Shown here: positions 1-7,503 of the stretch, piece after piece
Numbering within the stretch: the stretch's first letter is position 1
Layout: each line of letters starts with the position of its first letter
Assembly (NCBI GenBank): GCA_963712115.1
Contig: CAVQGX010000034.1
Location: 1-25,882, forward strand
DNA length: 25,882 bases
Reading direction: 5' to 3'
Origin: an uncultured delta proteobacterium
GTDB lineage: Bacteria; Desulfobacterota; Syntrophobacteria; BM002
The notes under the pieces: generated by a model
What the model saw: only the letters and a program-made list of their open reading frames with translations
Told to the model about the DNA's origin: nothing
The model's database searches: none
Position numbers and translations under genes: made by a program

Positions 1-35
1 CACACTCTGCTGGAATTTAATCTGGCACAAAATGT
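1..35. repeat. Module-boundary direct repeat, copy A (left part cut off by the window edge)
   Basis: CACACTCTGCTGGAATTTAATCTGGCACAAAATGT aligns without gaps to 3663-3697 and 6971-7005. Confidence 0.85.
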
Positions 36-63
36 CGAAGGCTGTCAAGGCAATGTCCACAAC

Positions 64-102
64 AAAGAAAAGAGGCTGAACGCACATGGCATCCAGCCTC
101 TT
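64..102 (-). terminator. Rho-independent terminator after the lipoprotein gene
   Basis: Stem AAGAGGCTG (70-78) / CAGCCTCTT (94-102); the A-rich run at 64-70 gives a U tail on the minus strand. Confidence 0.65.
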
Positions 103-151
103 ATCAAGCCAAATTATTTCGTTATTGAGATTTCCGCTCAATCCGATACGT

Positions 152-697
152 CTAAAATTCTTTGTCTTTTACATGTTCTTCATAAAAACGACGAAAACAT
201 CCAAAATTACTCGCTGAAAGAGAATACTCACGTTTTTTTACTTTGCACTTTACTTCTTCAGCATAAGTTATCTCCTTGAGTTGCTCAGGAGTAATATCGT
301 AAGCTGCCATATCCATGCCCCACAAACGAGAAAGTACGCTTTGAAGTTCTATCCTGCCTGAGCTTGTCAATCGCATATCTTTGTCATCAGCTGTCATGAC
401 CAAGGTTTCGGCAGGCTTTACAAAAAGCCAGTCTAGTCCTTTGTAGATAATCACTAGTTGGAGCTTGTACTTTTCTTCCTTCCTGTGAAGCCATATGTTT
501 AAATCCAGACTAGTTCCTAACTCATTATTTTCAGTTTTTATGGCGGTAAAGTTACCATTTTCATCTACTTCAGCTCTAATTGCACAAGCTGTAGGAGTAG
601 CTGATTCTGGTGGGTATGTTTTCCTGGAGCATCCAAATTGAAAGGTCATTAACAAAGGAAAAATAAGAAAAATCGGAAATACATTGCTTCTCATCAT
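152..697 (-). CDS. Hypothetical lipoprotein, 181 aa
   Basis: AAGGAG RBS; hydrophobic N-terminus ending in a lipobox-like QFGC. No family recognised. Confidence 0.75.
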   Translation of the reverse strand: MMRSNVFPIFLIFPLLMTFQFGCSRKTYPPESATPTACAIRAEVDENGNFTAIKTENNELGTSLDLNIWLHRKEEKYKLQLVIIYKGLDWLFVKPAETLVMTADDKDMRLTSSGRIELQSVLSRLWGMDMAAYDITPEQLKEITYAEEVKCKVKKREYSLSASNFGCFRRFYEEHVKDKEF

Positions 698-1005
698 TAA
701 ACTCCTTTGTACTTGGTCGGAGTGCCAACCTCACAAAAGGCGTTCTCATCATCTACACATCATATTGAGTGCCAACCTTACCATCGGGGCGTGGATAATA
801 CCTTTTCTTAATTTAAACCAAGATATGGTGGCGGGGTTTCAGTGGGGAAAGTGTGGATTAAAGTATGAGATATTCAGTTTCCAAAGAAATAGACAGAGCC
901 GGTTCTGACTCTGCCTTTCAGCTTGGGCTTGAACTTAACCTATTCAATTTCAATGAGTTAAGAGGCTCAGCAACGGGTCGGTGTAAACCCAGATTAAATT
1001 ATGGC

Positions 1006-1965: not shown

Positions 1966-2209
1966 TTAGTAACCATACCTCCAAAAAACTATTACCCCAC
2001 CTGACAACAGCAAGCTTTCTTTTTTAGCCATATCCTGTGATTTATTAGAAATGAAATAAGGCTTGGCAAACAGGCACAGGAGGTCTGAGAGTGTCAAGTC
2101 TATATTTTATAGAGCCATTCCAGAGCCGATCTAACATGTTATCAGATTAACACGCACAAATCGATAACGTATATTGTAATGTTTCAGACAGGTCAAGAGA
2201 AAAAAGGTG

Positions 2210-3522
2210 TTAGTTTGGTACGGCAGTCAATTGTTGTTGGATTCGTCCTTGGTTGACCTGTCTCCTTCGTTCTTTGGCAATTTGAACCATCTGCCTGTAG
2301 TGATTGAGAAGCTGGCTCTTGTTTCCGAGACGGTGGACATCGCCAGGGGTATAGTTCCACAGGGCCTGATGGGGCCGTTGTTCGTTGTAGTAGTCAATGT
2401 AGTGGGCCAGGCACAGGCGAGCGATCTCTTCTGAAAGATACGTGGGATAGCAGTAGATCTCTTCTTGTTTCACTGTCCGGTACCAGCGTTCCTGTCGGGC
2501 ATTATCCGTAGGACGATACGCTCTTGCTGGGGAGAGCAGCATCTCCAGGTCTTTGATCAGCCGCCTGGTCTTGATCGCCGTATTGGGTGAACCCTGATCT
2601 ACCCGGACAATGGGTTTGGGATGTTGATGCTCGATTCTCTCACTCATGTAGGCAAGTGCCAGGAGTGCTTGAACCTCTCGTTGGGTGACGGTCTTCACCA
2701 CGGCCCAGGCTACGATGTAACGGGAAAAATAGTCGATAATAGTGAGCAGGTAATGCCTCAATCCGGTAATCGACAGAATGGTCCAATCCTCTCCCCAGAT
2801 CTGGTTCGGGCGAAACGGTTCATATCGAGCTACTTTCCAGGGAGCCGTCCGCAGACAGGCAGCCATGACCCAGCCGAGAGCTTTGAGCCGACGGTAGCAA
2901 CTCGAAGGGCTGATCCAATGACCGTCCTGTCGCAACAAACCACTGACTTGGCGATGGCTGAGCTGAGGCTCTCCTTTCTTCTTCTTGATGATGGCGTGCT
3001 GTTCCTCAGCAGTCAGACGGAGCACGGCGGCCGACTTCTTTCGGACTGTAGGAGGGTTCAGCCAAACATAGTATGTGGAACGACAGACCCCAAGGCCCCT
3101 GAGCGTCTCTGATATGGAAAATCCTTGAGCACGGAGCCTTTGGACTTCCTCGAGGATCCGATGCCGCTGCTCCTGGCTGTAGGTGGCTCCCGTGGGACGG
3201 TTCGTTAGAGCAAGTTCATCTCTTTTTTTAAAAGCATCAGCTCTTGGGTCTGCAGAGCCAGGGCTTCCTTCAGTCTCTGGTTCTCTTTCTCCAGCTTCTT
3301 GATGCGGGGATCCAATCTGGGCTTCTTCCCACTCAGAAACGCTTGCGCACCCTGCTCCAGAGCTTTCCTCCATCGGTAGAGGGTCTGAGGATGGATCTGA
3401 TACTTCTCCGCTACCTCGACACCGTTTCCAGATCGCTCCCATTCCCTGAGAATCTGGAGCTTCTGCTGAGGGGTAAACCTTTTGGCCTTTCGCCGAGTTG
3501 GGATGACTAGTTGTACGCTCAT
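2210..3522 (-). CDS. IS3-family OrfAB DDE transposase made by -1 frameshift at A7 (3223-3229)
   Basis: Slipping -1 at TTA AAA AAA G joins OrfA to KRDELALTNRP...; rve core with WGEDWT, IIDYFSR, RVDQG, DNARQERWYRTVKQE, YYNEQRPHQAL. The 3568 start in the ORF track is probably not the real start. Confidence 0.8.
3205..3522 (-). CDS. IS3-family OrfA (HTH plus coiled coil)
   Basis: AGGAGGAG RBS; RFTPQQKLQIL...VAEKYQIHPQTLYRWRK HTH; leucine-zipper-like IKKLEKENQRLKEAL. Confidence 0.85.
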   Translation of the reverse strand: MSVQLVIPTRRKAKRFTPQQKLQILREWERSGNGVEVAEKYQIHPQTLYRWRKALEQGAQAFLSGKKPRLDPRIKKLEKENQRLKEALALQTQELMLLKKEMNLL

Positions 3523-3646
3523 GCATCTTCCTCCTCCTGGTGACTATAGCACTCTCTTGAGCGTCCAACTAACACCTTTTAGGGGCTGAAACTGTCTAGA
3601 TCGGATTGAAACATTATATATAGACTTATCTTGATCACTACAAAAC

Positions 3647-3697
3647 ATTACATCCCTTAATTCACACTCGGCTAAAATTTACTCTGGCACAAGATGT
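3647..3697. repeat. Module-boundary direct repeat, copy B (intact)
   Basis: ATTACATCCCTTAATTCACACTCGGCTAAAATTTACTCTGGCACAAGATGT; its first 23 nt equal the rejoined flanks of the IS1111 element. Confidence 0.9.
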
Positions 3698-3706
3698 TGA
3701 GAGTAT

Positions 3707-3730
3707 AAAAAAGCGGAGCCGAAGCTCCGC
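3707..3730 (-). terminator. Rho-independent terminator
   Basis: GCGGAGC-CGAA-GCTCCGC (UUCG loop on the minus strand), with A6 at 3707-3712 giving the U tail. Confidence 0.8.
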
Positions 3731-3743
3731 ATGGTTTTTGAGT

Positions 3744-5033: not shown

Positions 5034-5331
5034 AAGCGGTACCGGAAATAATGAACTAAAAGAGAGATACATGAATATGCGGTTACTTTGCACCAAAGAA
5101 AAAATATAGTCAAACAATTTTTTTGTAATATCGTATATTTATCAACATGGTGCAAGGTTGTTAATTTGTAGATAACTCTTCTAATATCCTCATATTCGTG
5201 CCAAACTCTTTTAACAATTTACTTACATTGCAGAGCAAAAAAAATAGCCGTGGACAACCAGGGAGAAAGTGAAATAGGCTGCATGGATAAGGTGGAGAGA
5301 AATGAGAAATCTCGGACTGCTATAAATGCAG

Positions 5332-5342
5332 ATTACATCCCT
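5332..5342. repeat. Module-boundary repeat copy C, left part (up to the CT core)
   Basis: ATTACATCCCT is identical to 3647-3657. Confidence 0.85.
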
Positions 5343-5364
5343 TCTATGATGGCCTTGTTGTCAA

Positions 5365-5731
5365 GCCCTCTTTTGGGGTGAGAGGTTTTTGCCTTGCTTT
5401 TCACTATATTTTCGAAGCATCCGAACCGAGGATGACCCGCAGCTGGATCCGGCACCGCGCCCATGCGCCTTATGGTCTTTGGTTGTCTGGTTCCGTGGGA
5501 CGTGGGAGTGCGTGGCTCCTGTCTACCACCTTCTATCCGTGCCGCAGGTTGTAAGCGGACACCTAATACTGCATGCGCTCAGCGCCCAGTGGAACCCAGA
5601 GGAAAGATGCCCCATCTTAATTACGGTGTGTGTCTCTCACCCAGGGAAGTAACGGGCATCTTTACAACCAAAACCGCTCAGAGCTTTACGAGATCCCGAT
5701 GTGGTTTACTGCCAGAGCGCCCACATCCTGT
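5365..5731 (-). ncRNA. Putative bridge RNA / seekRNA region of the IS1111 element (exact ends unknown)
   Basis: A 10-bp stem (5603-5612/5654-5663) encloses an internal loop matching both halves of the insertion target; a second long stem (5486-5600) contains CTTCTAT, matching the element's own end. Confidence 0.75.
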
Positions 5732-6883
5732 CTAAACGATCGCCTTGAGACACGCCCCTTCAGGGATGAGTCCATGTGTTCGAAAACGCCACAGTGCAAT
5801 GAGCAGTTTGCGGGCCAGAGCCACAATGCCAATACGCCGCATGCGCTTGCCTCCATGGGCAAAGCGTTCATTGAACCACCGACTCAGCTCGCTTCTGGGC
5901 TGGTAGCGTAACCAGGACCAGGAAATTTCAACAATGAGTGTGCGGATCCGCTTGTTTCCCGCCTTACTAATTCCCTGTTCCCTGTGACTCTCACCACTGG
6001 TATAGGGCGTTGGCGTCAGACCCGCACAGGCACCCACCTCCCGACGATTGCCAAAGGTGCGCCAGCCAAAAAACTCTTTTTCAAATACCCAGCCACTGGT
6101 TATGCCAATCCCACACAGGCTCATCAATTGCGCCACTCGCCTGTCAGAGTCCGTATCCCCCCGGCGAATCCGCTCTCGTTGCTCCTTCTCCAGAGTCCTT
6201 ATCTGCTCTTCCACATGGCGCAGTCGTTCATGCTCCCGGATGAGTCGAGCTCTCAGTTCACCGGGTACCATCGTGCCATCCCACAGGCGTATCGTCTCTA
6301 TATAGGTCACAAAGTCTTTCCTGCTCGCATTGCTAAGCTCGATCCCGTGTAACTTCAAAAGCGAACGCATCCGGTTGCGGTGCATCGTGCGCTCATCTCT
6401 CAACGTCTCCAACTCCCGGTGCAAATGCCTGGCATCCTCCTCATCAACACTTGGCACCCGCACCACACTCCACAGCCGTCTCTCTCCAGCACAAAACCGT
6501 ATCAGCATCCGCACCAGGCTGCCGGCATCCAACCGATCCGTCTTCGCTCGCCTCTTGCGCCGGCTCACTTCAATACTGGAAGAATCCACCACCACGTTGG
6601 CGATCCCACAACTGTGCAAATAGCGGTGCAACCAAAACCCGTACCTGCCTGCTTCATAACAACTGACCACCGGCGTGTTAGTCGGCAGTCCAAAACGCCT
6701 CCTCGCTCTGGCAATGGCATCATGTAGCTCCAGCATAGCCCCGGAACCAATCACCTGGTTCTTGACTCTACCGCCGTCACTGAAAGCCAGCTTCCACTTC
6801 CTCTCAGAGAGCTCCAAGGCAATGTACAAAAACTTTTCAACTGTGCTATTCTCCCTCTTGAGGGTCGCTTGGATCTGGTTCAT
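5732..6883 (-). CDS. IS110-family (DEDD RuvC-like plus Tnp domain) recombinase/transposase
   Basis: IALELS, CYEAG, AKTDRLDA; C-terminal CGIG, AGLTPTPYTSG (catalytic Ser position), ISKAGNKRIR, VALARKL; GGAGG RBS. Confidence 0.95.
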   Translation of the reverse strand: MNQIQATLKRENSTVEKFLYIALELSERKWKLAFSDGGRVKNQVIGSGAMLELHDAIARARRRFGLPTNTPVVSCYEAGRYGFWLHRYLHSCGIANVVVDSSSIEVSRRKRRAKTDRLDAGSLVRMLIRFCAGERRLWSVVRVPSVDEEDARHLHRELETLRDERTMHRNRMRSLLKLHGIELSNASRKDFVTYIETIRLWDGTMVPGELRARLIREHERLRHVEEQIRTLEKEQRERIRRGDTDSDRRVAQLMSLCGIGITSGWVFEKEFFGWRTFGNRREVGACAGLTPTPYTSGESHREQGISKAGNKRIRTLIVEISWSWLRYQPRSELSRWFNERFAHGGKRMRRIGIVALARKLLIALWRFRTHGLIPEGACLKAIV

Positions 6884-6965
6884 TGTAACCTCCTTGGTCC
6901 TTTGGGTTTGACAAGTACCTCTTTATACCACCAAAGGACTATCCAAGCGGCCCTTCATAGCATCT

Positions 6966-7005
6966 TAATTCACACTCTGCTGGATTTCAAACTGGCACAA
7001 TATTT
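6966..7005. repeat. Module-boundary repeat copy C, right part
   Basis: TAATTCACACTCTGCTGGATTTCAAACTGGCACAATATTT aligns to copies A and B. Confidence 0.85.
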
Positions 7006-7349
7006 AGTTTCCTGTCAACGACTGCTTCGACTCCGCTTCACTGCGCCTACAGCCCTTTGCCCAGCAAGCCCAACAAGCACAGCAAAAGGTCAAAAAAAAT
7101 GGTGTGCGCATTTGGCAGGCGCGTCCGGCACCTGCACGAAAAGCGCTGGAGGGACTACCCGGCCTCCGAATTCGGGCGCTGGTGCGATTGCGTTCGTTCG
7201 AGCTGGCGGGCATGGTGGCTGCGGCGAGGATCGGCTGGACCGAAGTGGCGCTCTTAAGCCTTCGCATCGCGGGGGTATCGGTAGTAGGCATTGGTCGAGG
7301 CAAGATCGTCGATTCTGGGGGCGATTTGGGCGTCGGATTGTTCCGATTT

Positions 7350-7427: not shown

Positions 7428-7503
7428 TGGTGGGCGGGACAGGAGTTGAACCTGCGACCCCCGGCTTGTAAGGCCGATGCTCTCCCCACTGAGCTACCCG
7501 CCC
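7428..7503 (-). tRNA. tRNA-Val(TAC)
   Basis: GGGCGGGTAGCTCAGTGGGGAGAGCATCGGCCTTACAAGCCGGGGGTCGCAGGTTCAACTCCTGTCCCGCCCACCA; 76-nt cloverleaf, anticodon TAC, encoded CCA. Confidence 0.97.

Follow-up and report, generated by a model that had tools for sequence, protein, structure and literature searches.

A predicted RNA-guided insertion sequence of the IS1111 type in the conserved core of a palindromic intergenic repeat of an uncultured member of the Syntrophobacteria

The stretch of DNA analysed here, 25,882 nucleotides (nt) from an uncultured delta proteobacterium (referred to as the window throughout; its source genome, a 70-contig assembly, is G000), contains at positions 5343–6965 an insertion sequence (IS), designated IS-A, which splits one copy of a repeat found throughout this genome. 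With a probability of about 0.88, IS-A is an IS110-family element of the IS1111 type, intact in appearance, in which a bridge/seekRNA predicted in the 3' non-coding region guides insertion into one form of the repeat, the type 1 site. The anatomy of the element, the guide–target matches, the covariation of guides and flanks in relatives and the repeated insertions at one position are all directly observed, whereas RNA production, circularisation and the activity of the present copy would follow from what is known of the family. In the mechanism envisaged, RNA would be made from the 3' non-coding region of IS-A, as in other members of the family, and one hairpin loop of this RNA would pair with both DNA strands flanking the CT core in TTACATCC-CT-TAATT, while a second region would hold the guides for the element's own ends. 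The transposase–RNA complex would then insert the IS-A circle (again by analogy with the family) in a single orientation and without target duplication, the landing place being the most conserved 15–17 bp of the palindromic intergenic repeat.

Insertion of IS-A into a repeat site

The element and the repeat copies that define its insertion are arranged as follows.

5343–6965, minus strand: IS-A, IS1111-type insertion sequence of 1623 bp (one copy of the CT core counted), delimited by reading the junctions and by relatives of 87–97% nt identity that align end to end
5332–5342, plus strand: repeat copy C, outer part, comprising the end of the weak arm and the spacer up to the CT core
6966–7009, plus strand: repeat copy C, inner part, comprising the conserved arm TAATTCACACT and a tail
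3647–3703, plus strand: repeat copy B, an uninterrupted type 1 site, with a terminator-like hairpin after it at 3706–3735

At the left junction the sequence AGATTACATCCCT (in a longer reading, GATTACATCCCT) extends to position 5342 and is followed by the insert, beginning TCTATGATGG; at the right junction the insert tail CATAGCATCT extends to 6965 and is followed by TAATTCACACTC. The earlier note on this DNA had described the insertion as precise, deletion of 5343–6965 restoring a sequence present in copy B, and a second reading bears this out: 5332–5342 joined to 6966–6977 give the 23-mer ATTACATCCCTTAATTCACACTC, which is found uninterrupted once in the window (3647–3669, 0 mismatches), was matched by 0 of 100 shuffles, and is interrupted by IS-A in an orientation-specific manner. 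Likeness between copy B and the restored copy C extends past the 23-mer, over 41 of 49 bases. The only repeat at the IS-A junctions is CT(T), at 5341–5343 and 6964–6966, which represents the family's usual core, not a target duplication; because it occurs at both junctions, the boundary is uncertain by 2–3 bases. IS-A is present in one copy in G000, where exact matches number 11 for the 23-mer and 49 for the 15-mer TTACATCCCTTAATT (85 at no more than one mismatch), copy B being one of many exact sites and no special partner of IS-A.

Transposase and family membership

The coding and terminal features of IS-A are these.

5732–6883, minus strand: transposase gene, 383 amino acids (aa), the only long open reading frame (ORF) of the insert
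6949–6960, minus strand: left subterminal inverted repeat, CTATGAAGGGCC
5344–5354, minus strand: right subterminal inverted repeat, GGCCATCATAG
5359–5364, minus strand: TTGACA, 16 nt from the 3' end of the IS

Family profiles, the C-terminal motif and the 3' non-coding tail all agree with the earlier assignment of the element to the IS1111 type. The transposase scores 57.7 bits with PF02371 (cut-off 21.3) and 191.2 bits with the NCBIfam model NF033542, 'IS110 family RNA-guided transposase' (cut-off 140), and PF01548 gives 28.8 bits, slightly below its 29-bit cut-off. Its C-terminal GLTPTPYTSG carries the catalytic Ser-Gly, conforms to the GL-P----S(T)G motif of the IS1111 group and aligns with AGLTPRRYESG of the ISCro4 transposase, the domain as a whole aligning around the catalytic Ser-Gly with the solved ISCro4 and IS621 transposases (catalytic residues according to PMC11208158). 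IS1111 elements are separated from IS110 elements by tail position, subterminal repeats and C-terminal motif, as set out by Siddiquee et al. (PMC11187229). In IS-A the non-coding DNA amounts to 389 nt downstream of the transposase gene (5343–5731) as against 82 nt upstream (6884–6965), and the subterminal repeats, CTATGAAGGGCC and CTATGATGG-CC, differ by one mismatch and one gap, fitting the IS1111 expectation of about 11–13 bp. IS-A thus works like an IS1111-type seek/bridge-RNA element and by most tests is one.

All seven aligned transposases of this clade, which has evidently transposed many times, have E and not D (ALELS/AFELS) as the first acidic residue of the RuvC-like motif; in IS-A it is encoded within window positions 6800–6830 (codons about 19–27), where D is found elsewhere in the IS110 family (GIDLH/GIDVS). 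The TTGACA near the 3' end is also found in the ends of IS-A relatives, and abutted IS-A ends would give TTGACA-N17-GATGCT, a possible junction promoter; such promoters have been described for this family (PMC11187229).

The predicted bridge/seekRNA

Two parts of the 3' non-coding region could act as guides.

5603–5663, minus strand: target-binding hairpin of the predicted bridge/seekRNA
5530–5570, minus strand: donor-binding part of the RNA, flanking a conserved stem-loop

In the target-binding hairpin, the 5' loop strand UUACUUCCCU (5643–5652) corresponds to the target strand TTACATCCCT, a 10-mer with one mismatch, and the 3' loop strand AAUUAAG (5616–5622) corresponds to the other flank plus core as an exact 7-mer. 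Both matches lie on the two strands of a single internal loop and overlap at the core, with the complement of the top strand coming first, which is the order reported for IS1111 seekRNAs (PMC11187229). The two matches fell within 60 nt of each other in 1 of 200,000 shuffles of the non-coding region. On the donor side, AUAGAAG (5530–5536) equals the IS-A 3' end with its core, and AGUAUU (5565–5570) is able to pair with IS-A bases 2–7. The donor motif CACGGAUAGAAG is located downstream of the target hairpin and terminates in the same 3' end and core, AGUAUU lying upstream of it, and the donor-side sequence CACGGATAGAAG is unchanged in 12 of 12 aligned relatives. The stems are preserved among 12 aligned sequences of relatives, with compensatory changes in 7 of 23 consensus pairs, and the loop strands vary; the fold signal of the region is confined to such local hairpins.

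Two positions set IS-A apart from its relatives: its fifth base (window position 6961) is G, where the left ends of all 16 relatives (AGATACTATG) have A, and position 5648, in its 5' guide, is U in place of the matching A of most relatives. An RNA-library contig of 1137 nt (X15) covers 5331–6408 with 43 differing letters; it may be DNA carried over from a relative, and so does not constitute evidence of IS-A transcription.

Independent insertions and covariation of guides with flanks

Representative genomes yielded few copies, among them a truncated, 85%-identical one in G011 that occupies a cognate repeat variant, and two further relatives of 54–56% identity in other targets; a separate scan of genome contigs found one short relative, without flanks. 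A metagenome scan was more productive, returning 30 loci, with 16 contigs that carry copies 87–97% DNA-identical to IS-A and at least one junction. All ten 3' flanks of these near-identical copies start with AGGGATG, and of the 5' flanks (n = 13) six end exactly in GTGTGAATTA and five differ from it by 1–2 bases. The copies share one orientation throughout, and the sequence past the core differs from contig to contig; with the same junction in differing contexts, they are therefore independent insertions into one family of sites. Copies lying in unrelated sequence had been named in advance as the observation that would overturn the proposed targeting, and by the tabulated flanks the targeting withstands this test, with 10 of 10 3' junctions and 11 of 13 5' junctions at the same position of the repeat. 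More distant relatives (L038/L054 and L056) reside in other sequences, as expected for reprogrammed guides.

The earlier suggestion to look for reads with an empty copy C had a less definite outcome. Twenty of the 24 listed sequencing runs hold part of the stretch (0.42–0.52 of its words in the best DNA runs), all of them kept as contigs, and one contig each in X1 and X6 joins position 5334 to 6964 with 'CC' between. With 21 letters on one side and a left flank about 10% different, these joins are too short and divergent to show an empty copy C, and maybe come from another repeat copy or organism.

Relatives with other targets carry correspondingly altered guides. In L004 (from G017, 54% aa identity) the 3' guide CCCGUUAG / CCCGTTAG equals the element's own flank, CCCGTT followed by AG, over 8 nt, and in L003 (from G009) it matches the flank TCATAG over 6 nt. 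The 5' guides of L041 and L046 each match 9 nt of their own 3' flank and that of L039 matches 7 nt, as compared with only 0–5 nt when 5' guides are paired with the flanks of other elements; for 3' guides the means are 5.4 nt to the own flank and 2.8 nt to those of others. As judged from these alignments, target choice is set by about 15–17 nt of the predicted RNA guide.

A second lineage in the same genome repeats the pattern. Fifteen PF02371 genes of G000 fall into about seven lineages, one of which, IS-B (four copies of about 1.29 kb, 27–28% protein identity to IS-A), is found in type 1 sites. IS-B is inserted at the (G)TG of AAGTG^TGAATTAAGGG, about 8 bp from the IS-A core. Like IS-A, it possesses subterminal repeats, and the loops in its 3' non-coding region follow the same frame. 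Its guides are copy-specific, each matching its own flanks (TTAATTCACA, TTAATTTACA and TAATCCACA on one side; ACGAAGTG, AGAGTG and GAAAGTG on the other), so that each copy follows its site variant down to single bases. In the two copies of IS-B that were inspected (L008, 1335–2352 on C42, and L010, 1346–2361 on C36) the first 56–64 codons, MYYTGIDLHKK..., which include the first catalytic D, are in a different frame from the rest, reflecting either a programmed frameshift or a shared defect.

Other IS110-family lineages of G000 were considered as further users of the repeat and rejected, since the junctions of lineages C (two copies), D (two) and E (four) and of a single element on C18 lie outside the repeat core. 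The element on C54, also a single copy, has a truncated type 2 core next to the end that was read. One lineage of four copies, one of them truncated (C30:40973–42025, C30:130752–131804, C30:230975–231610 and C47:2608–3660), has a different target, its ends and flanks sharing a TCTGAC(C/T)TCTG-like sequence.

Weighing the RNA-guided reading

Structure recognition was, before 2024, a common idea for IS that target attC sites and repetitive extragenic palindromic (REP) sequences, and by extension the transposase protein itself might read the palindromic DNA, or a hairpin formed by it, with the loop matches arising by coincidence. The dyad symmetry of the site and a non-coding region that is not unusually stable as a whole fit this account, as does its pedigree. 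It is nevertheless very improbable: guide and flank change together in relatives inserted into unrelated, non-palindromic targets, IS-B guides match their flanks copy by copy, paired loop matches as close as those of IS-A arise once in 200,000 shuffles, and the stems are conserved through compensatory changes while the loops vary. That the flanking half-sites instead belong to a larger element whose ends are formed by the repeat, filled and empty sites then not being alleles of one target, is a formal possibility to which the single copy of IS-A in G000 lends itself, and one with next to no probability given 49 exact uninterrupted 15-mer targets without IS-A and 16 other contigs in which IS likeness ends at the same two junctions while the repeat tails differ per contig.

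Several observations weigh against an RNA-guided IS1111 element as proposed here. The evidence is at the level of sequence only; the non-coding region as a whole folds no better than shuffles (z = 0.29), and in an Rfam scan, where only the two tRNAs reached the gathering score, it matches no family. The 5' guide of IS-A carries one mismatch to its own target, and this copy may be decaying, which, given the guide mismatch and the changed fifth base, would fit a single copy despite 49 free exact targets. Among relatives, two of the 13 5' flanks fit the core poorly (three differences in L053 and five in L057, the latter with a type 2 core where a doublet partner would be expected), and the 3' guides of several distant relatives match only 4 nt, core included, from which it follows that the 5' guide carries most of the specificity. 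As regards family membership, the transposase is 383 aa long as against the 330–350 aa typical of IS1111 (its relatives are similarly long), its first catalytic residue is E, and the terminal extensions are 5+1 (with the AG core assigned to the left end) or 3+3 (to the right) and not 7(6)+3, lengths that depend on where the repeat ends are drawn.

The target repeat

Further features of the window that bear on the repeat are listed here.

1–44, plus strand: repeat copy A, partial, at the contig start
857–868, minus strand: type 2 variant of the site core, TCATACTTTAAT
7428–7503, minus strand: tRNA-Val(TAC), about 450 bp from copy C

An iterated nhmmer search found 120 repeat copies in G000 (about 110–120 as an overall estimate), with an information peak at AT.ACATCCCTTAAT..ACACT. 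The core pattern, allowing at most one mismatch, occurs 86 times in this genome as compared to 0–1 matches for a reversed control. Of 17 other genomes of the genus 16 carry it, as does the single genome searched from a sister genus, and none of 23 further genomes searched does; three sister genera lack it. A type 1 site consists of a weak arm, a near-invariant 7-bp spacer CATCCCT and the strong arm TAATTCACACT in an 11-7-11 layout. Between the arms, a median of about 7 of the 11 positions are complementary, as compared with about 3 for a shifted control, and conservation is strongest in the spacer, not in a stem. A type 2 variant with spacer CATACTT has 60 matches in G000, 20 of which face a type 1 core, 13 at a distance of 78–79 nt and seven at 133–136 nt, with a terminator hairpin between the partners at the larger distance. 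Sites are located 3' of diverse ORFs in co-oriented arrays with a spacing of 0.7–2 kb, the preceding ORFs including PilZ, response regulator, OmpA-like, GNAT, GATase and PKD proteins, and many stand alone behind ordinary genes. An 18-mer of the repeat and a reverse-complement 17-mer were absent from the full texts searched, supplements not covered, and a 12-mer appeared only in unrelated papers.

Comparison of 17,205 site pairs identified seven whose similarity outside the core runs for at least 120 bp (400 bp in each of the seven listed) and which diverge 0–36 nt inside it, and five with the reverse pattern, shared inside and not outside, one of which is accounted for by IS-B; the breaks fall within the core. 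A 1.3-kb module with a response-regulator gene is found between a type 2 and a type 1 core in two unrelated contexts (C3:106034–107342 and C4:7416–8705), homology ending at the outer edge of both cores. These breakpoints, and the module in two contexts, indicate that segments have been exchanged at repeat cores, and together with the dyad symmetry they suggest exchange at the site itself. Window positions 1–868 duplicate C36:12971–13836, beginning at the type 2 core (857–868).

Between copy B and an AMIN-domain gene, at 2175–3620, the window also holds an rve-family IS (helix-turn-helix and integrase core) with three copies in the genome, for which an uninterrupted arrangement is seen on C3 near 110345–110349. 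It was considered as a source of the repeat and discarded, as its ends are unrelated to it.

No other site lies as near to tRNA-Val(TAC) and Lon as copy C. The orthologous tRNA-Val of G002 has a type 1 site, uninterrupted, about 110 bp away, and in six other genus members the place is taken by other DNA, which in G004 includes part of a tyrosine recombinase/integrase, so that tRNA-Val appears to be an integration hot spot. The tRNA-Val/Lon neighbourhood (L059–L068) contains a repeat array in G000 and G002, and a small ORF, MEKKWLLRLP..., is conserved there in four genomes. If the site is functional, IS-A should disable copy C because it parts the spacer from the strong arm by 1.6 kb; a block of recombination at the tRNA-proximal site, as proposed earlier, is plausible on this basis.

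Recombination site or REP-like element

The earlier note had taken parasitism by a dedicated IS as evidence that the repeat is an abundant, conserved functional site. Abundance and conservation of the core are upheld; recombination function does not follow from it, because a short RNA guide sets the target and relatives target REPs equally, so that the insertion attests to the core being abundant and conserved and to nothing further.

One account, to which we assign slightly less than an even chance, is that the repeat is a selfish or structural intergenic element resembling REPs or their doublets (REPINs), the breakpoints marking rearrangement hot spots. Its high copy number, extragenic location and conservation across the genus fit well, the pairing of 20 of 60 type 2 sites with a type 1 core at fixed spacing is reminiscent of REPIN doublets, and IS110-family elements classically target REPs (PMC11187229). 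Less easily accommodated is the conservation of the spacer over the stem, together with the poor hairpins formed by single sites as a result of the degenerate weak arm. Nor could a link to REP-associated tyrosine transposases (RAYTs) be made, and such a link was abandoned: G000 has four Y1_Tnp (PF01797; RAYT/IS200-type) genes, none with a site core within about 2.2 kb, and 2.5-kb flanks of all four contain one core only, about 2.2 kb from the gene on C48. On C20 (238078–238593) a RAYT-like Y1 transposase gene of 171 aa lies between copies of a different, GC-rich palindrome of the GTAG type, GGCGGGGATAAACCCCGCC, which is a separate classical REP family in this genome.

Possible too, and on present evidence rather unlikely, is that a dedicated site-specific recombinase uses the repeat as its core site and rearranges gene modules there in an integron-like or lox-like manner. 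The dif/lox-like arm-spacer-arm layout of 11-7-11 with a near-invariant spacer and one strong arm has the appearance of such a site, and co-oriented arrays just 3' of diverse accessory ORFs, homology breakpoints in the core among the 17,205 pairs, the 1.3-kb module in two unrelated contexts and the genus-bound distribution (16/17 and 1/1 in a sister genus vs 0/23 others) are what it would lead one to expect. Yet no recombinase could be tied to the repeat by recombinase profiles, array flanks or Y1 genes. None of the seven tyrosine recombinases tested reaches the integron-integrase cut-off, the best TIGR02249 score being 49.3 bits as against 265 bits, and the sites have no RYYYAAC/GTTRRRY pair in register, so that an integron/attC identity was rejected. 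The integrase beside the arrays on C39 and C11 was set aside as a candidate, since the query used did not find it in G002, G013 or G005, all three of which bear the repeat. The array of the closed genome G002 has no recombinase at either end and is bordered by cytochrome, BON and regulator genes, and the many single sites behind ordinary genes are a further difficulty.

More doubtful still is an elaboration in which type 1 (CATCCCT) and type 2 (CATACTT) would be heterospecific lox/dif-like cores of a genus-wide system for swapping gene modules, and the RNAs of two or more unrelated IS1111-like lineages would be programmed for parasitism of its most constrained 20 bp. If true, this would amount to natural cassette exchange, with the IS guides serving as a readout of the system and as bait for it.

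Significance and comparison with known systems

IS-A and IS-B offer a clean natural case of seek/bridge-RNA programming by a mechanism that is already known. They form a useful test set for guide rules, since both lineages have come to target one 22-bp core and, within one genome, the guide of each copy varies with its target, and the consistent E in place of the first catalytic D across the clade should be of note to enzymologists. The larger question is posed by the repeat, which in a genus of uncultured sediment bacteria has the shape of a recombinase site and borders exchanged segments; its invariant core is picked out by the IS insertions, and the IS sequence provides a handle with which to collect more sites from metagenomes.

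The earlier statement that some IS1111 members target recombination sites of other mobile systems is found in print, where attC sites, Tn21 inverted repeats and REPs are given as their targets (PMC11187229, PMC11208160). Closest in habit to IS-A are ISPa11, an IS1111-family element that targets REP sequences of Pseudomonas aeruginosa (PMC11187229), and the REP-targeting analogues ISPpu9/ISPpu10 of P. putida, which according to the published descriptions share with it a DEDD-type transposase, a downstream seekRNA region and oriented insertion into a high-copy palindromic repeat. Compared with these elements, IS-A has an unrelated target and host lineage, a longer transposase (383 aa) and E as the first catalytic residue. 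The best plasmid-borne relatives of its transposase, from Burkholderiales, are 52–54% identical, none of them close.

The IS1111-attC group (ISKpn4, ISPst6, ISPa25) is described as inserting, like IS-A, into a recombination-type site downstream of cassette ORFs, at one set position close to an end of the site, and its diverged transposases share one target by means of similar guides (PMC11187229), just as IS-A and IS-B (28% identity) share one core. Unlike the target of that group, the present one is not attC and has no R''/R' consensus, and IS-A and IS-B cut about 8 bp apart. IS4321/IS5075, inserted in Tn21 inverted repeats, resemble IS-A as IS1111-type parasites of a conserved end or site of another mobile system (PMC11208160), whereas the repeat targeted by IS-A has no known transposase or recombinase. 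With IS621, as portrayed in PMC11208160 and PMC11208158, IS-A has in common target and donor loops, the CT core and an internal loop with guides on both its strands. The RNA of IS621 is reported in its 5' end, while that of IS-A is predicted in the 3' end of an element with the long subterminal repeats of IS1111, and unlike in IS621 its donor guides lie around a multi-stem region.

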